From Betaproteobacteria bacterium (GTDB taxonomy: Bacteria > Bacillota > UBA5301 > DYFA01): 64,000 bases of DNA. The DNA lies in assembly GCA_050260635.1 (NCBI GenBank), contig JBLNCL010000030.1:72590-136589 (forward strand), given 5' to 3'. The stretch's first letter is position 1. Every line of letters begins with the position of its first letter. Made by a program: the position numbers and the translations under genes. The notes beneath the pieces are model-generated. The model did no database searches and was not told the origin of the DNA. It saw only the letters and a program-made list of their open reading frames with translations. Shown piece after piece: positions 14,329 to 56,783 of the stretch.

Positions 14329-14514
14329 GGCCCGCTTCAGGCTGGGATAGGAGCCAACGAGCTTGCCCAGGTGGAGGAGATGGTACCGGTTGTCAGCGGG
14401 GACGGCGGGTGTCCCCTGTTCGAGCGAAACCCCGGCGCGCTGGTTGTACTGGCGGTACAAAGCAATCCCTCCCCGCAAGACAAAAAAGCTCGCCCCGGTT
14501 GGGGCGATGAAGCT

Positions 14515-14602
14515 TGGTGCCGAAGGAGGGAATCGAACCCTCACGGGGGGTTACCCCACTCGATTTTGAGTCGAGCGCGTCTGCCAGTTCCACCACTTCG
14601 GC
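14515..14602 (-). tRNA. tRNA-Leu (anticodon CAA), 88 nt with long variable arm and encoded CCA
   Basis: Minus-strand sequence GCCGAAGTGGTGGAACTGGCAGACGCGCTCGACTCAAAATCGAGTGGGGTAACCCCCCGTGAGGGTTCGATTCCCTCCTTCGGCACCA folds as a cloverleaf: 7-bp acceptor stem, CTCAAAA anticodon loop, GGTTCGATTCC T-arm. Confidence 0.9.
14547..14602. repeat. Direct repeat copy 1 (56 nt, 5' half of tRNA-Leu), attL-type junction of the island
   Basis: Exact 56/56 nt identity with 29443-29498. Sequences diverge immediately outside both copies. Confidence 0.85.
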
Positions 14603-14703
14603 TTGAAGAACGACTTTGCACCCTTAGCGTCTCTTCAGACACGCTCGATTCGGAACTCTCGGATCACTCCTGATGCCCTTCATCGAGCGCGTTCGCACCT
14701 ATA

Positions 14704-14732
14704 ATAATACGCTACACGTATTCCAGTGTCAA
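14704..14732 (-). promoter_or_regulatory. Consensus sigma-A-like promoter (TTGACA-17-TATTAT) inside the island, oriented toward the reconstituted tRNA-Leu
   Basis: Minus-strand reading TTGACActggaatacgtgtagcgTATTAT. The -10 lies ~95 nt upstream of the tRNA 5' end. Confidence 0.4.
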
Positions 14733-15072
14733 CCGGCCACGTGCTGCCCTCTGCTGCCGCAGAGGGGTGGCATTCTGCGAATGCCTGGTTCGAGTTCCCC
14801 TCCGGCCTGTGCGTACCCGCAAATGCACCACCCGTGATGCTTCCTGTGGATTGGCCTAAGAGGCCCTCTGGCACGCCTAGGAGCCTGTGCGTCCATTCCT
14901 CGGTCGTAACCGGCACCGGAGGCTCATCAAGACACTTGAATCCTGTGGCGGCATGGCCTGGTGAGGTTACCCCGCCCGTCTCGGGTGGCGCGGCTCATGC
15001 GGGAAGCCTAGTAGTACAGCCTAGGTGCACAGACTTGGCTCGCAAGCCCCACTAAAGTTCTTCATACGCCCA

Positions 15073-15555
15073 TCACTTACCGAGTACTAATGGGGAGAAA
15101 AGGTAGGCGTCATCAGTCTTAGCCAGCAGCTTCTTGGCGTTGTCCTTCGCATCTGCAATAGCCGAGGCAATTACCTGCGGGGCTTCCTCCAGCATCTGTG
15201 GTCCCGCAAGGCCGCTTATGACCATGTCCCATGTTTGCCGAACGGTATCGAAGTCATTGAGAATCTTGTCCATGTCGGGCTTGAATGGTTCCTCGGGATA
15301 CTTGTCCAGGTACTTGTGGTAAGCGACGTAGAGGTTCTGATAGCTCGTATTGTAGTCCTGATACGTCATCCCACCAGCCTCGCACTTGTAAGCGAAGTCA
15401 ATCGCCTGGTTCGCTAGTGCCTCAATCTCTGCCTTCGGTGGTAGGGTTGCATAGCTTACTTGCGCTAGTGTGAGAGCCAAAGCGAACCCCAGACCAATCG
15501 CCACACTCCTTCTCTTCATGCGGCCTACCATCTTCATGCTTTCCCTCCCGAACAA
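15073..15555 (-). CDS. Secreted/lipoprotein-like hypothetical protein (island cargo)
   Basis: N-terminal signal peptide MKRRSVAIGLGFALALTLAQVSYA; no recognisable catalytic motifs; AT-rich codon usage unlike the host. Confidence 0.45.
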   Translation of the reverse strand: MFGRESMKMVGRMKRRSVAIGLGFALALTLAQVSYATLPPKAEIEALANQAIDFAYKCEAGGMTYQDYNTSYQNLYVAYHKYLDKYPEEPFKPDMDKILNDFDTVRQTWDMVISGLAGPQMLEEAPQVIASAIADAKDNAKKLLAKTDDAYLFSPLVLGK

Positions 15556-16077
15556 TCGGTCGTCTTATAGCAGTGCACATTGTCCCCAAGACGGGACTTG
15601 TCGTCGCTACGTGTCGATTTAATGGGAAATCTTCTCATTCATGGTCTATGATTCCTTCCGGCAAGTATCAGGCGAGAAGCCTAGGCGCACAGATATGCTC
15701 TACATCTACCATCCCAAGCACGTTCTTTTCTTCGTCCCCACACTGAGCTTCGACAACTCCAGTGCAAGGAAGATGGGCTCTGAGTGGCTCATTCTTCGCG
15801 TTGCGTCCCCCCAAACCCGGCTCAATTTTGGGTTGGCGAAAGCCCGCACCCTCGCCGCCGAGCAGATCGCCGTCCGCAGCATCCTCGCTTGTGTCGCTCA
15901 GTGCGGAGCAGCATAGGGGAGACGACCCAGGAATCATAAGCTAGCTTGCCGTCAGTTTCCTCGACAGCAAGCTAGCTTGAGCAGTCCGCAGGCCCCCCGA
16001 CAAGCAGAGCTTGCTGGGGGCCTAGCTACCTGCATGAAGATGGTAGATGTTGATAGTAGGAAACAACCACCCGTCTT

Positions 16078-16198
16078 GCGGACCGTCGGACGGTTCGGAC
16101 CGTTGATTTCAGCAGTCTACTCTTCTTCTCTTATCTCATTCTCAATTACCAAGAATAAAGGAGCAAAGTGACGGTCAGAACGGTCGGGACGGTCCGTG
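16078..16198. repeat. Iteron-like inverted arrays of three GGACCGT / ACGGTC repeats flanking a 65-nt AT-rich spacer
   Basis: GCGGACCGTCGGACGGTTCGGACCGTT ... (AT-rich) ... GACGGTCAGAACGGTCGGGACGGTCCG. Located immediately 3' of the P-loop NTPase gene. Confidence 0.5.
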
Positions 16199-16222
16199 GA
16201 AAAAACCTAACCAACGCGACTT

Positions 16223-17704
16223 TCATGCATCGAGCATATTCTCCCCGTGGGGTCTCTCCAGTTCATAAAGCCGGTACAGTGTCGCACCGTTCTGGCTTCT
16301 TCCTGCCTCTTCATATTCGATGCCAAGGTCCCTAAGACAAGGCAGTATTCGTTTCATTTCACACGACAGCTTCTTCTCGCTGTTGAGCCAATCTTCACCC
16401 CTGATATCATCGTCTGAGACTTTCAGCCTCAGAGCAGCCAACATTTGTTTGGTCGTGCCTTTCCAACTGCCATGATGCTCCTTGAGAAGTTGACGTGCAA
16501 GTGGTATTAGCGATTCTCCTCGTACAGTGTCTTCCAGAGTCCGCGACCGCACGTACGTCCAAGCCTTGAGGAAGTCGCCTTTGAAGAACCCTACCGCTTC
16601 TTCAACACAGGACCCCCACACTTCAAAGTCTGCCATCCTTGACTCAACGTCCGCACTATTCGCCTCTGCCTCAAACCTCTTTAGGCCCTGTGCAATAGCA
16701 CTACATAAAAACCCCAAAATGCGCGGTGTGGTTTCTGCGAAGGCAGCTTCTATTGCCGTCGCTGTACGCCTCTTTTCGATTCGGCTCAAGGGTATTGTAA
16801 TGGTCCGGCTCCGAAGGTCTCTCGCCGTAACAACATTCTTGACGGAGGTGATTATTACTGGCCGTGCAATGTGATAAGCGCGCATGATGTCAGTCGTGTA
16901 TAGCTCTCGTATCTGCATTCCAATGCCAGTCGAGACCTTGCATAGACTGTTTGATAGCCACTGATCTATCTTGGAGACATTATCGAAAGCTAATACCCAC
17001 GAACCATTCGCAATCTGAACCAACTGCTCTTCGTTTCGAGGTAGGGTTTTCAGAGGGTCCATAACCGGATCAATAAGCGATACGAGCATCTTCGCCAATG
17101 TACTCTTTCCGGTGCCAGGTCCGCCAATGAGGTTCAAAATTGGATAGCCGCACTTCCACGGCGTCAACCACCAAGTAATCAAGGCGGCAAGTACGATGAA
17201 GTCGGATATCTCCATGCCATCGATAAACTGCCATAAATCCTCTACAACTCCCCCCTCAACCGGTTGCGGAAGCGGTAACAAATGCGGCGGTCGGTTGAAC
17301 AAAACCGGGTGGTCTTTCACAACCTGCCAGCCATCCCGGGTAATCTTGACTGCTTCCCAATTCTCATTGCACAGGTCGATGTAAATGCAGCCCTCCCCCG
17401 GAGCGGTTCGAACATATGTTTTTGCATCAGGTGCCGTGCAATCCGCTTCAGCAACCAGAGCTTTGATCGCTTCACTGAGCGCGTAGGAATTGACTATTTC
17501 ACCCGTCTGAGTGCGATATAAGTGCCTAAGACGATTGGACAATCTGTCTGAATTGAGCGGCCACTGCTCGAAATGGTCGTCCACTTTGATTCTCCCAAAA
17601 GTCTGGCCCCCTGCCTTGAAATACTCAATCTGTGATCCTGCGAACTCAACGAGACGCTGTATTTGTTTATAGTTTGACGATTTTTTTCGATCATTCCTTG
17701 CCAT
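16223..17704 (-). CDS. P-loop NTPase, putative mobile-element replication/primase-helicase-like protein (SF3-helicase-like Walker A)
   Basis: Central Walker A GGPGTGKSTLAKML preceded by a ~200 aa N-terminal domain. Walker B-like hhhhDN follows (VLAFDNV). 493 aa. This domain arrangement is seen in phage/ICE D5/P4-type replication ATPases. The family assignment is tentative. Confidence 0.4.
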   Translation of the reverse strand: MARNDRKKSSNYKQIQRLVEFAGSQIEYFKAGGQTFGRIKVDDHFEQWPLNSDRLSNRLRHLYRTQTGEIVNSYALSEAIKALVAEADCTAPDAKTYVRTAPGEGCIYIDLCNENWEAVKITRDGWQVVKDHPVLFNRPPHLLPLPQPVEGGVVEDLWQFIDGMEISDFIVLAALITWWLTPWKCGYPILNLIGGPGTGKSTLAKMLVSLIDPVMDPLKTLPRNEEQLVQIANGSWVLAFDNVSKIDQWLSNSLCKVSTGIGMQIRELYTTDIMRAYHIARPVIITSVKNVVTARDLRSRTITIPLSRIEKRRTATAIEAAFAETTPRILGFLCSAIAQGLKRFEAEANSADVESRMADFEVWGSCVEEAVGFFKGDFLKAWTYVRSRTLEDTVRGESLIPLARQLLKEHHGSWKGTTKQMLAALRLKVSDDDIRGEDWLNSEKKLSCEMKRILPCLRDLGIEYEEAGRSQNGATLYRLYELERPHGENMLDA

Positions 17705-18542
17705 CAGTATGTTTCGACCTCCAATGCCATAAGATGGATACGCCGAGTTGCTTTTCCTTCGTTCTCCGCTTACACATCAGAATGGTTATCCTACAGCAGT
17801 CATCAAGATCATAAGCCCCCCTTCAAGACAAACCAAGAGCCCATGCCAAGGACGGCATTGGGCTCGATAGAGAAAGCCCATGCCATTCTTGGAACACGGG
17901 CTTGCATCGATCTATCAGCGAGTGGTATAGTGATCTTGGTAGTTAGCCACTCGCTCGGCGATGAAGCCCGGGCAGCCGAACCTCTCCTGCGCCAACAGGA
18001 GGGGTTCATCCGTTATAGGAAGATTGTACCGCTCGGGGCAGACCACGTCCAATCGAGTACCAGTCATTGGTAGGTCGTTTCCCCTCAATTCTATCAGGCA
18101 ACCCGTCCATTCTTTTTGCTGCGCGCCTGATTTCACCGGATTCCTAGCGCTTACGGAAGCCGAAAAGCCGCTCCCAGAGCCAGTTTTTTGCGATAACTAA
18201 AGTTATTCGTCCAAGGAATAGGCCACTAGCAGCGACTGGGCATCAGTATCCAGCAATAACTAATTACGAGTGCGTGGCCGAGGCTATCTTTCGTGCTCCT
18301 GGGGAGATAATAGGGCATCTACTTTCCCCTTGCCGGGCGATCTAGCGCCCTGTGGAACCTAGAGGGCTCCTAAAATGCAGGAACTATGGGTGATCAGATG
18401 CCGTAGCTCTACCTAGCTCCACAACACACGCTCTGTCATTCCTGCTCACCTCGTACGGATATTCGAAACAGTCCACTCCATAAGCTGCGCCTGGAATTCT
18501 GCCACTTGGGAGATCGTCAACTGATGCCTCCGAGCTGATACT

Positions 18543-19094
18543 CTACAAGAAAAACTCCTCCATCGTTTTGTCCATCATGTCCTGAGTAATGCCGATGTAG
18601 CGGAGCGTAACCGAAGGGGCAGAGTGGTTGAACAGCTTCTGCAGTAGGGCAATGTCCTTGTTCTTCTGATAGTGGTGATACCCAAAGGTCTTACGGAGGG
18701 TATGCGTCCCGATTTCCTCCAACGCCACCTTGGTCGCTGCATCGTTGAGAATCCGATAAGCCTGCACTCTTGTTATGGGGTTCCCTCCCTTGCGACTCTG
18801 GAACAGGTATTCGTCCTCGTCCATCCCCCTGATGAACTTCTCTAACTCCCCCCGTAACTGGTCGTTGATCAAGAACCGCTTCGTCTTGCCGGTCTTCTGC
18901 TCAGTCAAGGTGATATGAGTTTTGTCTTTCACGTCCTTGACCCGAAGGTTGAGAATGTCGCTAATCCGCAGTCCCGTGTTGATTCCAACCACAAACAGCA
19001 GGTAATCTCTGTACCCCCGCTTCAAGAGTTCAACCTTCATAGCCTCGATTTTGGCCTTGTCTCGAATGGGCTGAACCTCTCTCATCCCTACCAC
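18543..19094 (-). CDS. Small tyrosine recombinase / phage-integrase-family protein (183 aa)
   Basis: C-terminal catalytic region ...HTLRKTFGYHHYQ...SVTLRYIG with conserved R, H-x-x-R and the Tyr nucleophile; short one-domain-plus-catalytic architecture. Confidence 0.65.
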   Translation of the reverse strand: MVGMREVQPIRDKAKIEAMKVELLKRGYRDYLLFVVGINTGLRISDILNLRVKDVKDKTHITLTEQKTGKTKRFLINDQLRGELEKFIRGMDEDEYLFQSRKGGNPITRVQAYRILNDAATKVALEEIGTHTLRKTFGYHHYQKNKDIALLQKLFNHSAPSVTLRYIGITQDMMDKTMEEFFL

Positions 19095-19384
19095 CCCTTC
19101 CCCATTTGGCCCGTCCCACCATCCAATGTATTACATACAGATTGCTTGGTCAATACGTTATGATTCATCTATTCCGCGCCATTCCTCTTCTTGTCTGTTT
19201 AGAATGGCGGGGGAGTGGCTCTACATCGGCCTTTCGGGGGAAAGCAGCCTAAGTAACTTAATTCCCATTGTGTTACACCCGTTCTTGGCGGCGAGCGAAG
19301 AAGGAAAATTCTTCTGTGAATAGAACTTGCTGGTCGTGGGGTCGGATAGATCTGGCACCTTCGGTCCGAAAGGGATGCTAGCAA

Positions 19385-19873
19385 ATGACCGAACTTACCG
19401 CAGAAGAACGCAATCGCATTTATGAAGAAGAGAAGGTTAGACGAGAAGCCCAGAGGCAGCTTCAAGCGGAAGAGGCTGATCAAAAGTCTCGTGATCGGAG
19501 CATGGGTTGCATTACGGTAATCGGCCTATTGATCGGCTTCTTCATACTGGTGTCCGTGCTCGGATCATCGGATTCCAAGCCTGATCCATATGCGAATCGA
19601 GACCGCGAGGCCATCGCGTACGTACAAGGGCACATAAACCCAGGTGGGGAAACCGTATTGGCCAAGATGCAGGCGACCGTAGCCCTGGCCATGGTCGCAG
19701 GGACGTTCGTCCAGGTGGAAGGATGGAGCGCTTACCAAGAATCAGGGTCGATGTATCACGTTAGCTTCTCCTTCAAAGCCGCTGATGTAGAGAACAAAGC
19801 AGAGTGGGAGGTTGACGTAGCAAACGGTCAAGTTGAACCCAAGAACCAACTCGGCTACACTTTCATGAACTGA
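19385..19873 (+). CDS. Hypothetical membrane protein (island cargo)
   Basis: N-terminal coiled/charged segment, then one TM (CITVIGLLIGFFILVSVLG) and an extracytoplasmic domain; no known motifs. Confidence 0.4.
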   Translation: MTELTAEERNRIYEEEKVRREAQRQLQAEEADQKSRDRSMGCITVIGLLIGFFILVSVLGSSDSKPDPYANRDREAIAYVQGHINPGGETVLAKMQATVALAMVAGTFVQVEGWSAYQESGSMYHVSFSFKAADVENKAEWEVDVANGQVEPKNQLGYTFMN

Positions 19874-20258
19874 CGGTAACGAGCGCCGACATTGTCGTCG
19901 CAGCCCAGGAGACCAAGTTGTCCAACGGTGCCCCAAAACTTTGTCTTAGCTCCACAACATCGTTCAGTTTGGAGATTATACATCTTCGGCATTCCGGAGT
20001 AGCAACATGCCGGCCTCCCCGATTGACTTCCAAAACTCTTCCTTGAGAGGAATGTCCCCAACGATCACCCCTGGGGACACTGACCACGGCCAAGACAACT
20101 TGACCGAATTGGGAGGGGGTGTTCTACGCAAACATTCCCTTGTGTAATCGCCAGCCGAAGTTTGAGCCACCGGTGTTGCGGCGCAGGCTCTCCCGGAACC
20201 GGTAGGACTCGCCGGTGTGCTCGATGATGTGGCAGCGGTGCGTCACCCGGTCGAGAAA

Positions 20259-20430
20259 GGCCAGGCCGTCGTCCCGCTGAAAAAGTCCTCGCACAATCTC
20301 GTCGTCTACGGTAACATGGAACTGGGCCATCGTTTCACTCCTCCCTGGTGTTGGCTGCAACTTCACCATTTTGGAGGAGTGGTGGCCCTTTCCTTCTGGG
20401 CCTGTCCCTTTTTACACCACTATACGGACG
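20259..20430. mobile_element. Truncated IS256-family left end (solo ~170-bp fragment including terminal IR and first ~35 codons of transposase)
   Basis: Near-identical (a few mismatches) to 28039-28221, including the transposase N-terminus MAQFHVTVDDEIVRGLFQRDDGLA. Similarity stops abruptly on both sides. Confidence 0.75.
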
Positions 20431-20591
20431 CTACTGGGTTCGGCCTGAGATCACGCACAGATTCGCCGACTCGGCTACTCTGATGGGCCGTGGTTTCCCC
20501 GAGAAGGAATAAGATGGCAGTCACCAGAAAGTAACAGGAGGCGTGAAACCGAATCAGTTCCGTCTCAAACTTGGGGGGTACACGGCTACCT

Positions 20592-21953
20592 ATGCGGTTC
20601 ATCGATCTCTTCGCCGGTCTGGGTGGGTTCCACCTTGGCCTTGCTCAGTTGGGCCACGAATGCGTGTTCGCCTGCGAAATCGACTCCGAACTCCGAGACC
20701 TATACAACCTCAATTTCGGGATTAGGCCAGCAGGTGACATTAGACGAATAACGCCCGACGCGATACCTCCACACGACATTCTCTGCGCCGGCTTCCCGTG
20801 CCAGCCGTTCTCCAAGGCTGGAGACCAGTCTGGCTTCGAGGACCCGAAATCGGGAGACCTGTTCTACCATATTCTCAAGGTCTTGGAGTACCACGAACCG
20901 GACTATCTTCTGCTGGAGAATGTGCCAAATTTCGAGCGACATGATAACGGCAGGACATGGGAACTAGCGAAGGCTCATTTGCGCGAACGTGGCTATGAGG
21001 TGGACTCTCGCAAACTGTCTCCCCACCGGTTTGGCATTCCGCAGATTCGTGAGAGGGTCTTCATAGTGGGCAGTAGGAACGGGCTTGACGGGTTTGTCTG
21101 GCCACGCGAAACAACCCGAGAAAGGGACGTCTCCCTCCAGACGGTACTGGATAAGAACCCCTCGGATGCCAGGCGCCTTTCCAGCCAAGTCCTAAAATGC
21201 ATTGAAGTGTGGCAGAGGTTTCTAGACCTCTTCCCCCTGGATGCCAAGCTTCCATCGTTCCCAGTTTGGTCTGCAGAGTTTGGAGCTAATTACCCGTTTG
21301 AAGACACGACACCTTACACGCTCGGGGCTGCCGGATTAAGGGGTTACAGAGGGTCTCATGGCCGAGTACTTGGCGGAACCGATGAAGACGTCTTTTCCAT
21401 GTTGCCATCGTATGCCAAGACGAATGATGAGCGATTCCCAGATTGGAAAGTTCGATTCATTCGGCAAAACCGGGAGTTCTACGGCCAGTATCGAGAACTC
21501 ATCGACCAATGGCTTCCGGAGATTCTCCCATTCCCTGCCAGCTTTCAAAAGCTTGAGTGGAACTGTCAAGGTGAAGACCGAGACCTGAGAAAGTATGTAC
21601 TCCAGTTCAGAGCATCCGGTGTGCGCGTGAAAAGACCCACTACAGCGCCATCCCTGGTGGCCATGACGGCCACTCAGGTTCCGATTATTACATGGGAGGG
21701 GCGATACATGACCCCCCGGGAGTGCGCTCGCCTTCAGTCGATGGAGGGTCTTAAACTACCGTCTAGCCCGACCAATGCCTACCGCGCCCTAGGTAACGCA
21801 GTGAACGTCAAGGTCGTCAAGCTGGTAGCCTCTGCGCTCTTTGAGAGAGCAAACGGTGACTCTGGGACCGCCAGCCGACAAGGAGGACTCTTCGGTGTAC
21901 ACCTAGACAACTCCACCGAAGCCGTAATGGCCGGGAACAGGCGCGCCTCTTGA
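20592..21953 (+). CDS. dcm: DNA (cytosine-5)-methyltransferase
   Basis: Motif I FAGLGGF, motif IV FPCQPFS, motif VI ENV (LLLENVPNF), motif VIII QIRERVF, motif X GNAVNVKVV. The ATG (MRFIDLF) is 21 nt into the track ORF. Confidence 0.9.
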   Translation: MRFIDLFAGLGGFHLGLAQLGHECVFACEIDSELRDLYNLNFGIRPAGDIRRITPDAIPPHDILCAGFPCQPFSKAGDQSGFEDPKSGDLFYHILKVLEYHEPDYLLLENVPNFERHDNGRTWELAKAHLRERGYEVDSRKLSPHRFGIPQIRERVFIVGSRNGLDGFVWPRETTRERDVSLQTVLDKNPSDARRLSSQVLKCIEVWQRFLDLFPLDAKLPSFPVWSAEFGANYPFEDTTPYTLGAAGLRGYRGSHGRVLGGTDEDVFSMLPSYAKTNDERFPDWKVRFIRQNREFYGQYRELIDQWLPEILPFPASFQKLEWNCQGEDRDLRKYVLQFRASGVRVKRPTTAPSLVAMTATQVPIITWEGRYMTPRECARLQSMEGLKLPSSPTNAYRALGNAVNVKVVKLVASALFERANGDSGTASRQGGLFGVHLDNSTEAVMAGNRRAS

Positions 21954-22002
21954 CAAGGAGGAGAGGACCACGGCTCTCAGCAAGATAAGCATTCGCCCAG
22001 GT

Positions 22003-23505
22003 GTGAGCATGCTTTCTGTGCTCAGCCACTTGAATTACAAGCCATGGTACGCTTTGGCAGAGTTCGTAGATAACTCTCTCCAGAGCTATCTCGACTACCA
22101 TGAGGAACTCGCCGCGGTGGAAGGCCCAGGTTTCACCCTCAGGGTGTCGATAGAAATCGACCAAACCGATGAAGGACGAATCATCATTAGGGACAACGCT
22201 GCGGGTATCCACGAAAAAGACTATCCTAGGGCTTTTCGGCCTGCACAGCTACCCCCAGAACGGAGTGGTCTGTCCGAATTTGGAATGGGAATGAAGAGCG
22301 CGGCCTGTTGGTTCTCCGACAGGTGGAGTGTTCGCACGTCGGCTTTGGGAGAACCAGTAGAGCGCGAGGTCGCGTTCGACATTGACCGAATCGTGGCTGA
22401 TGAGTTGGAAGAGTTGTCCGTCCGGGAAAGCCCAGCAAACGCAAACACTCACTTTACCGAAATCATCTTGCGAGACCTCCACCGCCCGTTGCACACCAAG
22501 ACCCTCAGCAAGATTAAGGAGCATCTGGCAAGCATCTATAGGATCTTCTTGAGACGAGGCGTTCTCGAACTTGTCTTCAACGGGGAACGACTTACCTATT
22601 CGGACCCACCGGTTCTGCACGCACCCTATTTCCGGGACGAAGGTGGGGAACCCATTGTCTGGCGTAAAACAATAGAGTGGGACTTCGGAGATGGAATGGA
22701 GGTACACGGTTTCGCGGCCCTCAGAGAGACTGCTAGTACAACCCATGCGGGTTTCGCCCTGTTTCGCCGCGGACGACTGATTCAGGGCAGCGCCGATGAA
22801 GCGTATCGTCCCGAGTACATTTTTGAGAAGCCCAACAGTTTCGTCTATCAACGACTGTTCGGAGAACTACATCTAGAGGGGTTCGAGGTAAGCCATACCA
22901 AGGATGGCTTCGTGTGGAAGGAACACGAGGGTCTATTCTTGGAGTTACTCAAAGAGTACCTTAACCAGGAACCACTGCCATTGTTGAGCCAAGCCAAGGG
23001 ATACCGAGTTCGGCCCAGGAAGCGAGACATGCAGGAAGGGGCGGAACAGGCGGTTCGTCAGACGGCACTGGTAGTTGAGACCCATGTACCACAAGTGCTT
23101 GCCCCTCAATTGGAATCCCAACCCGACAGCCAGCCGCCGCCCCCGGCTTTACCCGAAGTCGGCGACACAATTGGTCGTGAAATCGTAGTGGATCTGAACG
23201 GCGTTCAGTGGAGAATTCAATTGGAGTTGACTACCGACCCAGCTGTGAGCGATTGGCTTACGGTGAGTTACTGGAACCAGAGGGCCGAAACGCGTACCGG
23301 AAGTATTGGTGTGCGGGTCTGTTTGGCTCATCCCTTCATGGACAGGTTTAGCGGCGTGGACTCGGAACAGATTGAACCCATTCTCCGAATAGCTGTTGCT
23401 ATCGCACTTGGGGAAGCCGCTGCCAGAGCCAGTGGGGTTCGATACGCAGGAACTATTCGCCGAAACATCAACGACCTTCTCCGAAATGCGCTTTCGAAGC
23501 CATAG
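22003..23505 (+). CDS. GHKL-superfamily ATPase (MORC/MutL-like, HATPase_c_3-type) associated with restriction systems
   Basis: Bergerat-fold motifs: N-box EFVDNSLQS, G1 IRDNAAGI, G2 SEFGMGMKSA. 500 aa. Lies between dcm and the Z1 gene with 49- and 39-nt gaps. Confidence 0.7.
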   Translation: MSMLSVLSHLNYKPWYALAEFVDNSLQSYLDYHEELAAVEGPGFTLRVSIEIDQTDEGRIIIRDNAAGIHEKDYPRAFRPAQLPPERSGLSEFGMGMKSAACWFSDRWSVRTSALGEPVEREVAFDIDRIVADELEELSVRESPANANTHFTEIILRDLHRPLHTKTLSKIKEHLASIYRIFLRRGVLELVFNGERLTYSDPPVLHAPYFRDEGGEPIVWRKTIEWDFGDGMEVHGFAALRETASTTHAGFALFRRGRLIQGSADEAYRPEYIFEKPNSFVYQRLFGELHLEGFEVSHTKDGFVWKEHEGLFLELLKEYLNQEPLPLLSQAKGYRVRPRKRDMQEGAEQAVRQTALVVETHVPQVLAPQLESQPDSQPPPPALPEVGDTIGREIVVDLNGVQWRIQLELTTDPAVSDWLTVSYWNQRAETRTGSIGVRVCLAHPFMDRFSGVDSEQIEPILRIAVAIALGEAAARASGVRYAGTIRRNINDLLRNALSKP

Positions 23506-23544
23506 CCGGCATCTGCTTGTAGGGACATCCGAGGAGGGATTCAC

Positions 23545-25776
23545 ATGGCCATGGACGCTGGACATCTTCCGACCGGCGCATGCCAGGAGACCGAGATTGT
23601 CGAAGTGTTGCCGCAGGCGCTTGCGACTGTCGGGGGCAGTTGGATTCCCATCGTAGGACCGGAGACGGCCGCGCTGTTGAGGTCAGTTCCCGCAGAGAGC
23701 CGGGATACTGTCTTGCGGGAAGCAGTTGCTGTTCTGGCTAGGTGCATTTCGCCACGTGAAGAAAGCGGACGCGAGACGGGCCTCGTCGTTGGCTATGTAC
23801 AAAGTGGCAAGACCATGTCCTTCACCACGGTCTCTGCACTGGCTCGGGACAACGGTTATCAAATGGTGATAGTGATCACCGGTACGTCAATCAACTTGTT
23901 TCGGCAATCCAACGACCGACTTCAATCCGATCTGCATCTTGTCCGCAGGGGTAGCGGGTGGAGGTCATTTCGGAGTGACCGACTCAACGATAGTGCCCGC
24001 CAAAGTATCCAAAGCGCTCTGGCCAGGTGGCGGGACGACACCGTGCGCCCGGACGAGCGCCAGACTGTGTTCATCACAGTTATGAAGCAGCGAACCCACT
24101 TGGATAGGCTCATCCGACTACTTCGCGCCCTCGACCTGCGGAATGTCCCTGCTCTCATCATTGACGATGAGGCCGACCAAGCCAGCCTCAACAATCTTGT
24201 TCGTAAGGGGGACCAAAGCGCTACCTACAGGAGACTAGTCGCGCTGAGAGACCTCTTTCCCCTTCACACGTATCTGCAGTACACGGCGACTCCGCAAGCC
24301 CCACTGTTGATTAACATCATCGACGCCCTGTCACCGGGTTTCGCTCAGGTGTTGACTCCGGGACCAGCCTACACCGGCGGTATTACGTTCTTTGAGCAGA
24401 ACCTTCAACTGGTTCGAGTAATACCGGAACAGGACGTTCCTACAGATGAGTTATCGCTTCTCGAACCGCCCGAGACCTTGCTCCAGGCCATGCGCACCTT
24501 CTTCTTGGGGGTGGCTGCAGACATCGTTGCCCCTGAGCAACACAATCGTTCCATGATGGTCCATCCATCTAAGGCGACCACCCAGCATCAAGACTATTGT
24601 CACTGGGTGAATTCCATCAAGGCCGAATGGCAGCGTACGTTAGAGTTGCCGGCCGACGACCCCGACCGTAATGACCTGGTCCAAGACTTCCAGGCTGCAT
24701 ACGATGACCTTGCCAAGACAGTGGGCTACGGACTGGCGCCATTCGACGAACTGATGGCCGTTCTTCACCGTGCGATACGGGAGACCGTTGTCACCGAAGT
24801 CAACGCCCGGCAAACCATAACCCCTGAAATCGACTGGGAACGGGACAATTATCACATTTTGGTTGGGGGGCAAGCGCTTGACCGCGGGTATACAGTGGAG
24901 GGACTGACCGTGACCTATATGCCCCGAGGAAGGGGGGTTGGGAATGCAGACACAATTCAACAAAGAGCTCGCTGGTTCGGATACAAGGCTGAGTACTTGG
25001 GTTACTGCCGGGTTTATCTAGCACCGGAGACATTGGAAGCATACAGAGGCTACGTACAGCACGAGGAGGATATCCGGCGGAGGCTTCGCGAGCACACGGG
25101 TTCACTCCGCGAATGGAGACGGGCGTTCTTCCTGTCGCCCAACTTGAGCCCGACCAGGAATAGCGTCCTTAATCTGGACTACATGCGCGGCAACTTCACG
25201 AACCGATGGTTCGAAGTGCGCTCTCCTCACGTCTCTGATGAAGCTATCCAAGAGAACAGGACGTTGGTGCAAGCCTTTCGCAACCGCCACCAGTTCGTTC
25301 CTGACGAAGGTGACTTGCGACGCCTGCCGACGCATCATCACATTGTGGCCACAAATATACCCCTCGGTGAGGTGCTGCAGCAACTACTGATTCCTTTCCG
25401 AGTGACCCATCCAAACGATTCAAACCGCATGTTGGGGTTTCTCTTGCAGGTCCAACGGTACCATGAGTTCAATCCGCGAGCTACCTGCACTGTCTATATT
25501 ATGTCACCCAACGTTCCCCGGGAGCGGGGCGTGGACGAAAATGGCGAGATCGCGCAACTGTTCCAGGGACCACATCCAGACAAAAATGGCGAAATCTATC
25601 CCGGAGACCGTGGAGTAAGAGCTCCAGAGGGCTTGACGGTCCAAATCCATCTACTCCAGACTGTCCATGACCGCGGCAATCAGGCTTTGGCCCACGACGT
25701 TCCCGTTCTTGCCGCGTGGGTCCCGGAAGAAATGTCGGCCGATTGGGTTACCCAGAACCAGGGCGGGGCGAGATAG
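23545..25776 (+). CDS. Z1-domain protein (SF2-helicase-like ATPase found next to C5-methyltransferases)
   Basis: Walker A GYVQSGKT and DEAD-like Walker B LIIDDEADQ in the N-terminal half; 743 aa. Gene context dcm + GHKL ATPase + Z1 is the characteristic association described for the Z1 family. Confidence 0.65.
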   Translation: MAMDAGHLPTGACQETEIVEVLPQALATVGGSWIPIVGPETAALLRSVPAESRDTVLREAVAVLARCISPREESGRETGLVVGYVQSGKTMSFTTVSALARDNGYQMVIVITGTSINLFRQSNDRLQSDLHLVRRGSGWRSFRSDRLNDSARQSIQSALARWRDDTVRPDERQTVFITVMKQRTHLDRLIRLLRALDLRNVPALIIDDEADQASLNNLVRKGDQSATYRRLVALRDLFPLHTYLQYTATPQAPLLINIIDALSPGFAQVLTPGPAYTGGITFFEQNLQLVRVIPEQDVPTDELSLLEPPETLLQAMRTFFLGVAADIVAPEQHNRSMMVHPSKATTQHQDYCHWVNSIKAEWQRTLELPADDPDRNDLVQDFQAAYDDLAKTVGYGLAPFDELMAVLHRAIRETVVTEVNARQTITPEIDWERDNYHILVGGQALDRGYTVEGLTVTYMPRGRGVGNADTIQQRARWFGYKAEYLGYCRVYLAPETLEAYRGYVQHEEDIRRRLREHTGSLREWRRAFFLSPNLSPTRNSVLNLDYMRGNFTNRWFEVRSPHVSDEAIQENRTLVQAFRNRHQFVPDEGDLRRLPTHHHIVATNIPLGEVLQQLLIPFRVTHPNDSNRMLGFLLQVQRYHEFNPRATCTVYIMSPNVPRERGVDENGEIAQLFQGPHPDKNGEIYPGDRGVRAPEGLTVQIHLLQTVHDRGNQALAHDVPVLAAWVPEEMSADWVTQNQGGAR

Positions 25777-25778
25777 CG

Positions 25779-26798
25779 ATGCCAGATCTTGTTCCCATCT
25801 TTGATGCACTACAGGTGCCGTTGGGAACTGGCCCTGTACAGTACTCAGCTCAACCCATTCCTGGCGTAAGGCGCCACAGGGTAGCTAAGGATAAAAGCGG
25901 GTTCCCCGCGCTGCTTCTGAGCGTGACAAGCTCCACCCCGAGTCCCGTTCCGAATCCAGTCATCTTGAAGCACCTGGTCGTACAACATGATGTGCAGTGC
26001 AGGATATCGTTTAGAGATGGCCACTCGACGGAAGAGACTTTCACTGTGGTTCGCTGCGCTGGTTCGGACAGGGTCTTGCACGTCTATTTTCTGAATGTAA
26101 TGGCTTCGATACTGACTCTTCTCGGGGACAGTCCCTCTCGTTCAGATGTAACGGCCGCGGTGAACAGGCTAGTTGAGTTGTTTCAAGCATTAACCGAGGA
26201 GCCCAGGAAGTCCTTGCAGGGTCTTTGGGCTGAGTTGTTCTTGGTGGCAAATGGTTCGGACCCAACTACGCTGATCCAGGCCTGGCATGTAAACCCTGCT
26301 GACCGCTACGATTTCGCCTTGGGTGACCAAAGAATTGAGGTCAAGAGCGCAAGCAGACGTCTCCGACAGCACCACTTTTCGTTGGAGCAGCTTTCGCCGC
26401 CCCCGGGGTCGCGGGTCGTCGTAGCGTCGGTGTTCACAGAGCCAATGGGAGGAGGGGTGTCAGTTATGGACCTTCTCACCCAGATACACAGAAGAATAGC
26501 AGGGAATGCGAACGCGGCACTAGCGGTTGACAGAATTGTCGGAGCGACTCTTGGAAATGGTCTAGAGAGGGGCAATGAGGAGAAATTCGACTTCGAACTC
26601 GCTGAAAGCTCATTGCAGTTCTTTGACGTTCGAAGTATTCCGCGGATTGACTTGGTGGACGTTCCCCCTGGCGTCAGTGAAGTTCGGTTCAAGGCAGACC
26701 TCTCCAACGTCGCTCCGGTCAACGAAGCAGCGCTACACGCCATGGGGACATTATTCCAGGCTTCGTGCCCCCACGTTGCAACCCGAGGCACCCCATAG
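25779..26798 (+). CDS. Putative PD-(D/E)XK-family restriction endonuclease component
   Basis: Candidate catalytic core DRYDFALGDQRIEVKS (D ... E-x-K). Starts 2 nt after the Z1 stop, indicating translational coupling; 339 aa. Confidence 0.45.
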   Translation: MPDLVPIFDALQVPLGTGPVQYSAQPIPGVRRHRVAKDKSGFPALLLSVTSSTPSPVPNPVILKHLVVQHDVQCRISFRDGHSTEETFTVVRCAGSDRVLHVYFLNVMASILTLLGDSPSRSDVTAAVNRLVELFQALTEEPRKSLQGLWAELFLVANGSDPTTLIQAWHVNPADRYDFALGDQRIEVKSASRRLRQHHFSLEQLSPPPGSRVVVASVFTEPMGGGVSVMDLLTQIHRRIAGNANAALAVDRIVGATLGNGLERGNEEKFDFELAESSLQFFDVRSIPRIDLVDVPPGVSEVRFKADLSNVAPVNEAALHAMGTLFQASCPHVATRGTP

Positions 26799-26899
26799 CA
26801 CTCTGGGGTCAGAGGCCGTCGGCTTGGACGCAGATGGCTGCTGGGCCTCCCATGTTTGGTTCGCAGGACGGCAACTCCTTGAGAGAAGGGGGCACAGCA

Positions 26900-28221
26900 C
26901 ATTCAATGGTCAAGTCCAGAATGTGGTGTAAAAGGCTCCTCCAGGGGTGTTCGGGTCAGCTAGGCGGCAGCTTCCCCCTTCTGGCACTGGTCTGAGGTTG
27001 TGGCGTTCTCCTGCACTCGCTTCCACTCCCAGTAGGCGTCCATGTTCAGGTACCGGCGCTCGGTCGTCCAGGCCTCGTGCTGTTCGAGCAGGACCGCCCC
27101 CAGAAGCCGCAGCGCTGACTCCTCGTTCGGAAAGATTCGGATCACCCGCTCCCTCCGGCGGATCTCCTCGTTCAGACGCTCCAGCCCGTTAGTCGTCCGC
27201 AGCCGCTTGCGATAAGGCTCGGGCAGCATCATCACCGCCATGGCATCCTCAAACCCGCTCTCCAGCCGTTCCATCGCCCGGGGAGCTCGCTCTTGGAAGT
27301 CTGCTAGGACATCCGCTAAAAGTTTTCGGGCAGTCTTCAGGTCTGGCGCATCGAACACCAGCCGGAGTCTCCGGTGCAGTTCGCCCTGGAGCGCCTTGGG
27401 ACAGACCTCCAAGACGTTCCGGAGCAAATGCGTCTGGCACCTCTGCCACGTCGCCCCCTGGAAGCGCACCTCGATCGCCTTCACCAGCCCCCGGTGATCG
27501 TCTGAGACCACAAGCTCCACGTCTTTCAGCCCACGCCGTTTGAGCCAGGCGAAGAACTCCGACCAGCTGTCAAAGGACTCGCTGTCTCCCAACATCAGCC
27601 CAATCACTTCACGATACCCGTCCTGATTGATCGCCATGGCCACCAGAGCGCTCATAGAGCGGACTGCTCCGCCTTTACGCACCTTGAGCACCAGCCCATC
27701 GACGATCAGGAACGGATACCGGCTCTCGCCCAGACTCCGTTCATTCCACTCCCCGACGACCTCGTCGAGCCTCCGGCAGAGTTCAGACACGGTCGACTTG
27801 GAGAACTCCGTCCCGCACAACTTCTCCGTGATCTTCCAGACCTTGCGGGTGGAGACGCCGTTGATCACCATCTCCATCATCGCCACCAGCAACGCCTGCT
27901 CACTGCGCTGGTAACGAGTTCGTGCTCTCGGTGCCCATTCCGATAACCCTGCCGCTCTGGCGTGCGCTCGTAAGGCACAGCCTTGAGTTGCTCGGCTACC
28001 TGCGCTTCAAGCACCTGATTCAGAACGCACTCTGCGAGTTTGGCCAGACCGTCGTCCCGCTGAAAAAGTCCTCGCACAATTTCGTCGTCTACAGTAACAT
28101 GGAAGTGGGCCATCGTTTCACTCCTCCCTGGTGTTGGCTGCAACTTCACCATTTTGGAGGAGTGGTGGCCCTTTCCTTCTGGGCCTGTCCCTTTTTACAC
28201 CACTATACGGACGCTACTAAT
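26900..28221. mobile_element. IS256-family insertion sequence (~1.3 kb) with imperfect terminal inverted repeats
   Basis: IRL (revcomp of ...TTTTTACACCACTATACGGACGCTACT at 28195-28221) matches IRR GGTCAAGTCCAGAATGTGGTGTAAAAGG at ~26905-26932. The internal transposase has IS256/mutator-type motifs. Confidence 0.8.
26960..28152 (-). pseudogene. IS256-family (mutator-type) transposase, disrupted by frameshift and an apparent ~80-nt internal deletion
   Basis: N-terminal ORF (27877-28152) ends ...PYERTPERQGYRNGHRE. C-terminal ORF (26960-27892), in another frame, resumes ...YQRSEQALLVAMMEMVINGVSTRKV. The segment normally lying between these motifs (about 30 aa) is missing. Confidence 0.7.
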
Positions 28222-28259
28222 GCAAACTCCTCTCCCGACACTAGAGCTACGACCCTTGG

Positions 28260-29252
28260 CTAGTGATTCTCCAGCTCAAGCGGGTGAGAAACTAGCTCAG
28301 GTTGTCGTGGTTTCAGCTTTCTTACCCGACTATGATTCGGCAGGATAGTGCTGAGGGGCGACACTTGGTCATGCTGCTGGCGAAGATCGCCCTGAGTCAT
28401 AGCGACATAACGCTTGGTCATGGATAAGTCTGAATGACCCATGATGCGCTGAAGGGCTAGCGCGTTGCCGCCGTTCCGAAGGTATTGAAGGGCAAAAGCG
28501 TGGCGCAAATCATAAGGGCGTATCTTCACGCCAAGCCGTTTACTGTAAAGTTCCATCCTGTCGTTCCAGGAGTCCTTGTCCATTGGAGTGCCCTCAGCCG
28601 TACAGATAACCGGAACATGGTCATTCCACTTAGGATGACGAGCCTTGATAAGGTCCTGAATGACGGAGACAGTGACGGCAGAGAGGGGAAGGGTCCGTGC
28701 CACACCAGTCTTTGCCACTTCGGGTCGAATATGAACCTCTAGTGCTGCAAAGTCGAAGTCACCCTTCAGTAGTGAGCACGCCTCTTTAGGGCGTATCCCC
28801 GTATCAAGGGTAAGGATGAGCATAGCGTAGTCACGCAGCCCAGCGAAAGTCTTGCGGTCGGGCATTGCCAAAAGAGTCCGCAGAAGTTCAGGTTCCAGAC
28901 TTACTACTCGTCCAGGGTCTTTGCGAGTCTTAAGGTCAACCAGAGGGTTGCTTGTGTAAACGCCTTCGGCAATGCACCAATCGAAGAACTGTTTCAGGTA
29001 GGCTCGTCTCATGTTATAGGTCGCTGGTCTGATGGGTTCCCCCATGTAGGCAAAGACGGCGGGGCTGGGATCAGTCGCCCGGTAAGCCCCGGGGTAGCGA
29101 CGGAAGAAGATGCTGATGGCGTCCCTCTGGCCGCGAAGGGTTGTCGGCCTGAGGCCTTGAGCCTTCTTGTAAAGGAGATACTTTTCGACCGCTTCCTGCC
29201 ACGTGGCTGGGATGGACTGCTGTCTCTGCGCCTTCCTCACCCTGACTGACAC
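28260..29252 (-). CDS. int: Tyrosine-type site-specific integrase (phage integrase family); GTG start
   Basis: C-terminal catalytic domain with R...HxxR...Y (YDLRHAFALQYL...HSDLSMTKRYV). N-terminal SAM-like core-binding domain. Adjacent to the distal att repeat. Confidence 0.85.
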   Translation of the reverse strand: MSVRVRKAQRQQSIPATWQEAVEKYLLYKKAQGLRPTTLRGQRDAISIFFRRYPGAYRATDPSPAVFAYMGEPIRPATYNMRRAYLKQFFDWCIAEGVYTSNPLVDLKTRKDPGRVVSLEPELLRTLLAMPDRKTFAGLRDYAMLILTLDTGIRPKEACSLLKGDFDFAALEVHIRPEVAKTGVARTLPLSAVTVSVIQDLIKARHPKWNDHVPVICTAEGTPMDKDSWNDRMELYSKRLGVKIRPYDLRHAFALQYLRNGGNALALQRIMGHSDLSMTKRYVAMTQGDLRQQHDQVSPLSTILPNHSRVRKLKPRQPELVSHPLELENH

Positions 29253-29258
29253 AACACA

Positions 29259-29305
29259 AAGCCTCCTTAGTCTCTTAAGAGAAGCTAAGGAGGCTAATCG
29301 AGCGT
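29259..29305. promoter_or_regulatory. Long perfect palindrome overlapping the integrase Shine-Dalgarno (AGCCTCCTTAG-TCTCTTAAGAGA-AG-CTAAGGAGGCT)
   Basis: 11-bp outer stem and 6-bp inner palindrome directly upstream of the int GTG. The outer arm contains the GGAGG RBS. Confidence 0.5.
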
Positions 29306-29442
29306 GTCCCGTGAGGTCGAATTTGGGCCAGTCAACTCCACTCTACATGGCACGTTGTCGAATGGGGTTTGGCTCTTCCCGTCCCTCATCGAAACCTCCG
29401 AAGTTGGCTCTGGAACCCGTTTGCGCCGTTCCCTTCACACGT

Positions 29443-29498
29443 GGGGTTACCCCACTCGATTTTGAGTCGAGCGCGTCTGCCAGTTCCACCACTTCGGC
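29443..29498. repeat. Direct repeat copy 2 (56 nt; orphan 5' fragment of tRNA-Leu), attR-type junction
   Basis: Identical to 14547-14602; lacks the tRNA 3' portion. Confidence 0.85.
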
Positions 29499-29527: not shown

Positions 29528-29556
29528 ATTCTAGCACACTCGCCCCAGCCTGCCAA
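29528..29556 (-). promoter_or_regulatory. Putative ancestral tRNA-Leu promoter (TTGGCA-17-TAGAAT), now orphaned upstream of the tRNA fragment
   Basis: Minus-strand TTGGCAggctggggcgagtgtgcTAGAAT. The -10 lies 29 nt upstream of the first nucleotide of the tRNA 5' fragment. Confidence 0.4.
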
Positions 29557-47703: not shown

Positions 47704-47930
47704 TGCCCATCCCTCCTTTCCCGGCATGACCTATCGCAAGATAGTCTCCCTCCGGGCGCCCCGTGCGATTAGGAGCAGTTTTCGCCCCGCCTGCCACGCC
47801 CTGCCTATACCAAGTCTAGGATGAACGGCCAGAATGTGGTACAGTATTTAGTTACAGACCATGCCCACACTCGCAAGACGAATTGGGTTCTGCGAAGGGT
47901 GACATAGATTCTAAGAATGTGGAGGTAACC

Positions 47931-56639: not shown

Positions 56640-56715
<76 letters not shown>

Positions 56716-56725
56716 ACGAGATTAC

Positions 56726-56762
56726 GCAGCGGGTTTGGCTTGGAAGGCCAAACCCGCTTTTG
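56726..56762. terminator. Rho-independent terminator hairpin (bidirectional candidate) between tRNA-Glu and hsdR
   Basis: GCGGGTTTGGC-ttggaa-GGCCAAACCCGC followed by TTTTG on the plus strand; A-run on the other side. Confidence 0.6.
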
Positions 56763-56783
56763 TAAACCCCCGAACAGGTGTTG

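Follow-up and report, generated by a model that had tools for sequence, protein, structure and literature searches.

A probable integrative island in a tRNA-Leu(CAA) gene with a displaced tRNA 5' fragment next to its integrase gene

The window, which is the whole stretch of 64,000 nt analyzed here, very probably carries a 14.84-kb integrative island (14603–29442) that used its own tyrosine integrase to insert into a tRNA-Leu(CAA) gene and supplied the 5' part of this gene, together with a promoter, via its attP. The intact tRNA-Leu(CAA) was detected on the minus strand at 14515–14602 by ARAGORN and by Rfam (53.9 bits versus a gathering score of 29), and its 5' end, at 14602, adjoins the junction distal to the integrase gene (int). 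A terminator-like hairpin and a T-run are located just 3' of this gene, on the host side (14490–14507, minus strand). Positions 1–56 of the tRNA (14547–14602, minus strand) are present again, exactly and in the same orientation, at 29443–29498; searches allowing up to three mismatches found only these two copies in the window, and none in 100 dinucleotide shuffles. The order on the tRNA strand is native-type promoter, 5' fragment (1–56), integrase, cargo, island promoter, intact tRNA and terminator, and it follows from this order that attP must carry the 5' portion of the tRNA. The initial annotation had described an exact 56-nt duplication of tRNA positions 1–56, a displaced fragment corresponding to the tRNA 5' half and an attP bearing the 5' portion, and the first point was confirmed by the positions, orientation and shuffle control, the other two being supported by the gene order and repeat geometry.

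The outer edge of the repeat coincides exactly with tRNA position 1. The statement in the initial annotation that identity halts at both edges is therefore correct for this edge, but not for the inner one, because the repeat can be lengthened to 61 nt if one mismatch is allowed (14542–14602 versus 29438–29498), so identity has not fully ended at position 56. The displaced fragment at the int-proximal junction (29438–29498, minus strand) is thus exact over positions 1–56 and has one mismatch over 57–61; positions 57–63, which match at five of seven sites, are the sole extension. Rfam did not call the displaced copy as a tRNA, even at E ≤ 0.1, and no credible gene or Rfam family was found over 29443–29498, in agreement with the initial view that the second copy is not part of another functional gene. 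With the whole tRNA as a BLAST query, no further tRNA-Leu fragments were identified in the window, which rules out a tandem array or a nested second island. A decayed tRNA 3' part beyond position 56 was also considered and was dropped after local alignment against shuffles and the island background (p about 0.05–0.1). Strings resembling a T-arm and an acceptor were seen after position 56 of the fragment, with non-significant scores.

The integrase (330 aa, NCBI MGE5554253.1; PF00589, E 1.7e-28) is encoded at 28260–29252 on the minus strand, co-oriented with the tRNA, and 190 nt separate its start codon from the displaced fragment, the distance originally reported. In an alignment of 24 sequences of its clade, R154, K181, R250, H273 and Y282 are invariant, consistent with the catalytic residues of PF00589, and the first histidine of the HxxR motif is replaced with a tyrosine (Y247) that is invariant clade-wide. 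A Xer identity was rejected on the basis of the NCBIfam cut-offs (99.6 versus 335 bits), with both the Xer and integron models far below cut-off. The integrase and the flanking aldo/keto reductase (AKR) gene have consecutive NCBI protein accessions.

Lower-GC DNA fills the 14.8 kb between the repeat copies, and in addition to the tyrosine integrase it contains IS debris and a Dcm-linked restriction cassette. The region 14603–29442 would accordingly be annotated as acquired DNA with a methylase-linked restriction cassette, and its combination of lower GC content, defence genes and IS elements is typical of islands. The four-gene defence cassette (20571–26798, plus strand) encodes a C5 cytosine methyltransferase (20571–21953), a GHKL ATPase (22003–23505), a Z1/helicase protein (23545–25776) and a DUF4420 PD-(D/E)XK protein (25716–26798). 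Its scores are below the curated MZA cut-offs (MzaC: 96.6 versus 1500 bits; MzaD: 36.6 versus 420 bits), and the cassette is MZA-like only, not an MZA anti-phage system. An IS256-family insertion sequence (26914–28212, minus strand), with terminal inverted repeats at 26914–26933 and 28193–28212, contains a split transposase (26960–27892 and 27877–28152), and a solo 184-nt IS256-family end (20252–20435, plus strand; 96% identical to 28035–28218) overlaps an IstB fragment (20124–20369). Two further proteins are encoded on the minus strand: a 493-aa cargo protein with weak P-loop NTPase signals (16223–17704) and a small tyrosine recombinase of 183 aa (18543–19094). The interpretation of the latter as a truncated second integrase was rejected, since the protein has the full length of small Bacillus phage recombinases (58% identity to the PK2 and phi105 homologs). 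Phage structural, lysis or replication genes gave no informative PHROG or Pfam match in the cargo, which does not therefore qualify as a prophage, and no match was found between the island DNA and plasmids. The island may be immobilized, because it carries IS insertions and no recognizable excisionase. No replication gene was recognizable within it either.

Calculated over 1-kb intervals, the GC content is 0.50–0.62 across 15–29 kb and 0.61–0.72 in the flanks; the compositional drop reported initially (45–55% versus about 68%) is therefore real but smaller. The leftmost 400 nt or so of the island (14603–15000) have a GC content of 0.56–0.64, close to the host value, which speaks against the island reading. 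On the int-proximal side, the host flank includes the AKR gene (29573–30604, minus strand), which encodes a protein with a 4Fe-4S domain and lies within a run of conserved core genes; on the tRNA side, a GGDEF/HD-GYP gene is located at 12307–14028. A cross-phylum transfer, prompted by the 'Betaproteobacteria' label of the assembly, was rejected because the flanks resemble those of Bacillota. No empty site or attP junction was found in the collections searched, which contain no close relative of the host, the homologs of the AKR flank being at most 53% identical besides the window's own protein. The 56-mer had no match in the JGI metagenomes, and the exact AKR protein was found only on Logan contigs, which stop inside the repeat.

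Our census of the integrase clade comprised 83 genomic loci, 80 from a reference-genome scan together with L001, L003 and L005. The window integrase is 50–62% identical to the members of this clade. An intact co-oriented tRNA was present no more than 320 nt upstream of int in 50 of the 83 loci (median gap, 178 nt) and was a tRNA-Leu in 33 of the 50; the clade is thus tRNA-targeting, mostly of tRNA-Leu. The fragment and the tRNA of the window are co-oriented with int, as in these 50 canonical loci, and are not therefore of the reversed type. The int start is also separated from tRNA position 1 by a similar distance (246 nt in the window; 229–241 nt in L001, L003 and L005). The spacing and orientation are therefore like those of canonical members, but the anticodon loop has the restoring homology on its opposite side. 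The canonical repeats mostly start at positions 23–31 and reach the 3' end of the tRNA (L014, L020, L024, L026, L027, L029, L032, L057 and L068), and the 5'-type repeats end at positions 47–57 (L030, L056, L086, L094 and L099). A layout like that of the window was found at a few other loci: L086, in which both ends are visible, and the Paenibacillus elements L030, L094 and L099, for which the evidence is int-proximal only, their far ends not having been recovered (that of L030 is outside its fetched locus). L030 and L099 have a common replacement sequence. In L056, a tRNA-Arg is reversed and its intact copy adjoins int.

The crossover position is not visible within the locus, because the two copies are identical over positions 1–56. 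However, the canonical starts (23–31) and the 5'-type ends (47–57) bracket the anticodon stem-loop, and we infer from this comparison that the crossover lies in this stem-loop, at the same site as in canonical relatives, the difference being the side on which homology restores the gene. The initial annotation placed it in or downstream of the anticodon/variable region; the clade comparison favours the anticodon part of this proposal over the variable arm. Strand exchange would occur in the anticodon loop, between the two arms of the symmetric stem CTCGA/TCGAG. In most relatives, the part of the tRNA carried on the int-proximal arm of attP would start at the anticodon arm and continue to the 3' terminus. 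In the window element, by contrast, the int-distal arm would carry the promoter, a leader of about 95 nt and tRNA positions 1 to about 56–63. Integration would then fuse the promoter and 5' part of the element to the 3' part and terminator of the host, generating the sole intact tRNA copy, probably element DNA from position 1 to the crossover and host DNA from the crossover to position 88. The host promoter and 5' part would have been moved 14.9 kb and would now be aimed into int through a hairpin sequestering its ribosome-binding site (RBS).

Promoter-like sites are located at both ends. At the int-distal end, a sigma-70-type promoter borne by the island (TTGACA-17-TATTAT, 11/12 consensus; 14704–14732, minus strand) lies 101 nt upstream of the intact tRNA; it is predicted to be active and would drive the reconstituted gene. 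At the other end, the fragment is preceded, at a distance of 29 nt, by a native-type tRNA promoter (TTGGCA-17-(TG)TAGAAT; 29528–29556, minus strand), which can be aligned in its -10 region with the promoter of the Pelotomaculum tRNA-Leu(CAA). A 16-bp hairpin (29260–29295, minus strand; -25.7 kcal/mol, z -3.6) precedes int, as it does clade-wide. Its 3' arm includes AAGGAGG, the Shine-Dalgarno sequence of int, after which come UUUGUGUU and the start codon. This hairpin is a putative attenuator or translation block. Core-like motifs recur in both arms. The motif CAGACACGCTCGATT (14636–14650, plus strand), inverted relative to the tRNA, mimics tRNA positions 20–33 and is a candidate accessory integrase-binding site. 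A direct near-copy of the core half-site lies close to it (14682–14693, minus strand; AACGCGCTCGAT versus GACGCGCTCGAC at tRNA positions 22–33), and the P' arm contains GACACGCTCGATT (29296–29308, minus strand), direct relative to the tRNA. The calculated chance expectation for the 13-mer common to the CAGACACGCTCGATT motif and the P' arm is about 0.002.

We also considered whether the 5'-only repeat might be secondary, attP having once held a whole tRNA-Leu, as in L018 and L010, and the int-proximal copy having later lost its 3' part through decay or a small rearrangement. The repeats of some clade members begin at position 1, 8, 11 or 12, L010 and L018 each have two copies that are called as tRNAs, the island is decayed, and the conserved spacing between position 1 and int implies that about 32 nt fill the slot of the 3' part. 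However, the sequence beyond position 56 does not resemble the tRNA 3' part significantly (p about 0.05–0.1), although positions 1–56 are perfect, and the breakpoints of L030, L094 and L099 fall within the narrow zone 47–57. This narrow zone, together with the replacement sequence common to L030 and L099, argues for a heritable attP design, and we consider such a secondary loss to be unlikely. An assembly artefact appears to be quite improbable. The integrated state was read from a metagenome-assembled contig, and a free circle, or an element integrated elsewhere, might have been misthreaded through the 56 nt common to attP and an uninterrupted host tRNA-Leu. The source being such a contig is compatible with this possibility, as is the observation that all the Logan k=31 contigs (SRR24035586 and SRR24035587) end inside the repeat, indicating that the assembly graph branches there. 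However, such breaks are expected from any repeat of at least 31 nt, and a 56-nt repeat is shorter than an ordinary read and would normally be resolved by read paths. Even if misthreading had occurred, attP would still consist of a promoter and tRNA positions 1–56, and the 5'-type conclusion would hold. Finally, a chance or non-mobile duplication, with the second copy belonging to another gene or a regulatory RNA and the low-GC block unrelated, has nothing in its favour except the missing empty-site comparison and is extremely improbable, given the absence of matches in shuffles, a repeat bounded exactly by the tRNA 5' end, a fragment without a gene or Rfam family and an integrase of a tRNA-Leu-targeting clade at the clade-typical distance.

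Returning to an attP that supplies the 5' part, a broader scenario can be put forward, albeit tentatively and with some doubt. A single tRNA-Leu-targeting clade may have kept the anticodon-loop crossover and the int-attP layout, while the restoring block changed arms on more than one occasion, from an int-proximal position, where it supplied the 3' part, to an int-distal one, where it supplies the 5' part and promoter, with separate origins for the window and for Paenibacillus L030, L094 and L099 (the integrase clade tree has no support values). One promoter of the element would express the host tRNA-Leu(CAA) in the integrated state and int after excision, the native promoter being redirected into int behind the RBS-sequestering hairpin. 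If this side switch did take place, it would provide a concrete route for the evolution of integration-site sidedness, and the host would depend on the promoter of the element for a tRNA. Canonical, reversed and 5'-type layouts all occur within one clade, where they can be compared directly, and this clade therefore offers a useful natural series for changes in target sidedness without a change in crossover and for the control of int by tRNA promoters.

The element resembles the canonical members of its clade in protein sequence, tRNA-Leu target, tRNA orientation and spacing relative to int, pre-int hairpin and, probably, crossover site. However, in those members attP spans the tRNA from positions 23–31 or so to its 3' terminus, and int lies beside the intact gene, whereas the window element has positions 1–56 and a promoter in its attP, with 14.9 kb between int and the intact tRNA. 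Anticodon-loop integrases reportedly correspond to the 'A' sublocation of Williams (2002), in which the identity block is said to abut the anticodon stem-loop, with crossover in the 7-nt loop. Work by Zhao and Williams in 2002 is said to provide a precedent for integration on the 5' side, and its title suggests a tRNA in the opposite orientation to the element. In that type, as here, the element must supply the tRNA 5' part and promoter, but the tRNA of the window, unlike that in a reversed arrangement (cf. L056), is canonical relative to int and the homology is on the int-distal arm.

Integration on the 5' side is thus already documented, and the locus is a further case of a rare minority mode rather than a new kind of system, given this precedent and the 159 of 3919 Islander islands with a 5' fragment. 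The latter count, taken from the text of PMC4383910 (Hudson, Lau and Williams 2015), is consistent with the initial statement that a 3' fragment is the usual outcome of tRNA integration, and makes the locus a precisely bounded example of a minority mode (about 4%). The same text explicitly allows fragments of either type, provided that a 5' fragment is upstream and a 3' fragment downstream of the tDNA. Like the 5'-fragment islands described there, the window element is bounded on one side by a full-length tDNA and on the other by a terminal 5' fragment that lies upstream in the same orientation. It encodes a non-Xer, non-integron tyrosine integrase between the repeats, its identity block stops at the gene end, and its length (14.84 kb) falls within 2–200 kb. 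Here, int adjoins the displaced fragment and not the intact gene; the text of PMC4383910 does not state the side of int in the 159 islands. In the tRNA-dependent lysogeny of actinobacteriophages (Guerrero-Bustamante and Hatfull 2024, PMC10865867), a host tRNA gene is likewise targeted and a transcription unit of the element must provide the tRNA function, but the core is about 10 bp and, instead of rebuilding the tRNA, these phages carry a complete tRNA gene separately, whereas the 56-nt identity of the window element rebuilds the host gene at the junction, which sets it apart from that class. In integrated ICEKp1 (Liu et al. 2026, PMC13023037), the host tRNA promoter reads into int through attenuating 5'-UTR stem-loops and, once the element is excised, a promoter from its other end takes over int. 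The window has a comparable predicted series of native tRNA promoter, hairpin, int and far-end promoter. However, ICEKp1 belongs to the canonical 3'-type elements and comes from Proteobacteria, whereas in the window the far-end promoter would also express the rebuilt tRNA.

ARAGORN predicted two tRNAs in the window, one of which is an intact tRNA-Leu(CAA) (14515–14602, minus strand; Rfam score 53.9 bits). Its 5' end lies at 14602 on the minus strand, so the 56 nt at 14547–14602 correspond to tRNA positions 1–56. The exact second copy reported in the initial annotation was recovered in the same orientation (29443–29498), and neither the rest of the window nor shuffled sequence contained a match to the 56-mer with up to three mismatches. 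The report that identity stops just outside both copies held at tRNA position 1, where the stop is sharp, but at the other edge the match reaches 61 nt with one mismatch. The sequence beyond position 56 was tested as a decayed 3' part of the tRNA, and the match was not significant. Even with a permissive threshold, the distal copy was not recognised as a tRNA by Rfam, and it is not covered by any credible gene; the flanking integrase and aldo/keto reductase (AKR) proteins have consecutive NCBI accessions. A sensitive BLAST search of the window with the whole tRNA as the query identified no further tRNA-Leu fragments, and we therefore consider the 14.84-kb element at 14603–29442 to be a single island rather than a tandem array. 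The island does have a lower GC content than its surroundings, but the contrast is smaller than initially described (0.50–0.62 inside versus 0.61–0.72 outside), and its leftmost 400 nt are close to the host in GC. We conclude that the observation of an island whose att repeat is the 5' part of the tRNA is real, and that its interpretation is correct.

Read on the strand of the tRNA, the right flank consists of host core DNA with the AKR gene, which carries a 4Fe-4S domain (29573–30604, minus strand), and an aminotransferase gene; in a sister contig, these genes are preceded by those for alanine dehydrogenase, pyk, pfkA, accA, and accD. A promoter-like site (TTGGCA-17-TGnTAGAAT), with a −10 region that aligns with the Pelotomaculum tRNA-Leu(CAA) promoter, is located 29 nt ahead of the 5' fragment of tRNA-Leu. 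The fragment is followed by a 190-nt spacer, the distance given initially, ending in a strong hairpin with the Shine-Dalgarno sequence as its 3' arm, and then by the gene (int) for a 330-aa tyrosine integrase. The cargo includes a complete IS256-family element with a frameshifted transposase (26914–28212) and a solo 184-nt end of such an element (20252–20435; 96% direct repeat of 28035–28218). These two copies flank, in direct orientation, a methylase/Z1/DUF4420 cassette, an arrangement reminiscent of the remains of a composite transposon, or of a substrate for recombinational deletion. The cassette encodes a C5-methyltransferase, a GHKL ATPase, a Z1 protein, and a PD-(D/E)XK protein, and is MZA-like, with matches below the cut-offs. 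There is also an IstB fragment and a small tyrosine recombinase of 183 aa (18543–19094, minus strand) with little beyond the catalytic domain, which is not truncated relative to its homologs in Bacillus phages PK2 and phi105 (58% identity) and in many Streptococcus and Clostridium phages. Several other cargo proteins yielded no informative matches. A near-consensus promoter (TTGACA-17-TATTAT) is found 101 nt ahead of the intact tRNA, which is followed by a terminator. The island may no longer be mobile, given the IS insertions and the lack of a recognisable excisionase within it.

The source record is labelled 'MAG: Betaproteobacteria bacterium', but this label is probably wrong. A TRAP (PF02081) gene and an accD-accA-pfkA-pyk-ald gene run are present in the flanking DNA, the flanking AKR has its best homologs in Desulfotomaculaceae and Peptococcaceae (~53% identity), the best integrase homologs are likewise from Firmicutes, and DnaE scored above the cut-off of the NCBIfam model NF005298. 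These sequence affinities make it more likely that the host belongs to a high-GC lineage of Bacillota that lacks close relatives in the collections, in which case a Firmicute-type integrase requires no cross-phylum transfer. Elsewhere in the window, a tRNA-Glu(CTC) (56640–56715) is directly followed by a type I restriction hsdR gene (56784–59939), with a lower-GC patch (0.54–0.57) beyond it at 60–62 kb. A second tRNA-associated island may occupy the interval 56640–62400; no repeat of a tRNA-Glu fragment was found within the window. An ORF of 2908 aa (47883–56609, plus strand) had no match in NCBIfam; it overlaps four ORFs of 292–517 aa on the minus strand and may be a high-GC artefact or a real giant gene.

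The relatives of the integrase (identity of 62% or less) are found mainly in Firmicutes and Synergistota that are thermophilic or anaerobic. We classified 83 loci, 80 from a reference-genome scan together with L001, L003, and L005, according to the sequence upstream of int. An intact co-oriented tRNA was present within 320 nt in 50 loci (33 tRNA-Leu; median gap 178 nt) and an intact reversed tRNA in nine. Six loci (one of them weak) had a co-oriented 3' fragment, the usual state of downstream members in tandem arrays; a co-oriented 5' fragment was found in two or three (L030 and L086, with L078 weak), and a near-full-length, degenerate co-oriented copy and a reversed 3' fragment in one locus each. 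Nothing was recognisable in 10 loci, and three had no available upstream sequence. In the canonical layout, the intact tRNA is next to int and the repeat covers the 3' part of the gene; where the far end was visible, it usually started at positions 23–31, just 5' of the anticodon stem (L014, L020, L024, L026, L027, L029, L032, L057, and L068), and ran through the 3' end. The start was at positions 11–12 in L010, L013, and L021 and at position 1 in L018; the repeat of these four loci spans almost the whole tRNA up to its 3' end, and both copies are still called tRNAs in L010 and L018. The L005 repeat is diverged (87% identical); it begins at position 8, crosses the spacer, and reaches into a remnant of the int start. 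This second diverged tRNA with P' arm (int-proximal end) and int start, 10 kb downstream (9767–10010 and 19743–19985), looks like a tandem remnant. In spacing (246 nt from tRNA position 1 to the int start, versus 229–241 nt) and in the way the tRNA sequence is oriented with respect to int, the window resembles the canonical members, but it differs from them in that the broken copy is the int-proximal one.

Other members share this 5'-type layout. In L030, from a Paenibacillaceae MAG, a promoter is followed by positions 1–47 of tRNA-Leu(TAA), unrelated sequence, and then int, and two viral contigs carry positions 1–49 (L094, 148 nt from int) and 1–57 (L099, 151 nt from int). The sequences flanking the fragment on either side are shared by L030 and L099, which therefore represent one element family in two genomes. 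Both ends are visible in L086: its tRNA-Arg 5' fragment is degenerate and is followed by int, ~3 kb of cargo, and an intact tRNA-Arg with TTGACT-17-TAGGCT ahead of it. L056 is a reversed 5'-type, with tRNA-Arg(CCT) antiparallel to int and the intact copy adjoining int (9697–9803; 16651–16727); its exact 77-nt repeat comprises positions 1–47 and ~30 nt 5' of the tRNA. A reversed intact tRNA is next to int in eight further loci. In a neighbour-joining tree, built without support values, the window grouped with canonical tRNA-Leu members and L030 was placed among the canonical Paenibacillus Leu(TAA) members. These different groupings suggest that the 5'-type layout arose at least twice.

Canonical repeats in the clade mostly start at or before position 31 and 5'-type repeats end at or after position 47, so, provided that all members of the clade share a single sublocation, the crossover would fall in the anticodon stem-loop, between the two limits. 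In this tRNA, the anticodon stem (28–32 and 40–44; loop 33–39) is a perfect palindrome, CTCGA/TCGAG, and the crossover is not visible in the window because the two copies are identical across this region. The enzyme and crossover site would thus be ordinary, the change residing in which of the attP arms bears the homology for rebuilding the gene; a block ending exactly at tRNA position 1, with an upstream promoter, is what such an attP would need. The P' arm contains a 13-nt motif, GACACGCTCGATT (29296–29308), which recurs inverted in the P arm at the int-distal end (14638–14650, within a site at 14636–14650), with a near-copy at 14682–14693. All three resemble tRNA positions 20–33, on the 5' side of the anticodon arm, and the calculated number of chance 13-mer matches between the two arms is ~0.002. 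They are possible accessory sites for the integrase, in which no arm-binding domain is recognisable, and they support the assignment of 14603–14700 to the element despite its host-like GC. In L001, the segment between the tRNA and int contains a comparable pair of inverted core-like sequences. Neither an empty site nor attP was found in the collections searched, which contain no close relative of the host. The contig was assembled from metagenomic data, and k=31 assemblies made from the same samples break off within the repeat. There is a small residual possibility that the assembler misthreaded a free element; misthreading would leave the attP structure proposed for the island unchanged.

In the integrated state, the tRNA promoter would read toward int. 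The hairpin ahead of int (29260–29295, minus strand; −25.7 kcal/mol, z −3.6) is predicted to pair the Shine-Dalgarno sequence in full; a U-rich tract and then the start codon come after it. Predicted folds of the 70 nt upstream of int in L001–L089 had at least four of the six Shine-Dalgarno bases paired in 65 of 78 loci (median z −2.3), and the hairpin recurs across the clade though the stem sequences differ. The hairpin has the appearance of a terminator and translation block in one, which would insulate int from the upstream tRNA promoter. After excision, the far-end promoter would drive int and would also express the rebuilt tRNA. This predicted control of int resembles that of ICEKp1, for which attenuating 5'-UTR stem-loops and promoter switching have been shown experimentally (PMC13023037).

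In the texts consulted, we found no discussion of a canonical target orientation relative to int combined with an intact gene at the int-distal junction, and we claim no novelty for it. Integration on the 5' side has been described as 'considerably less frequent' than that on the 3' side, in a passage citing Zhao and Williams 2002 and several archaeal cases. In Islander, a 5' fragment located upstream of the tDNA is an accepted configuration; 159 islands there have 5' fragments, versus 3760 with 3' fragments (PMC4383910). Since 5'-side integration has been both described and counted, this island is a further instance of a known minority class of tRNA integration.
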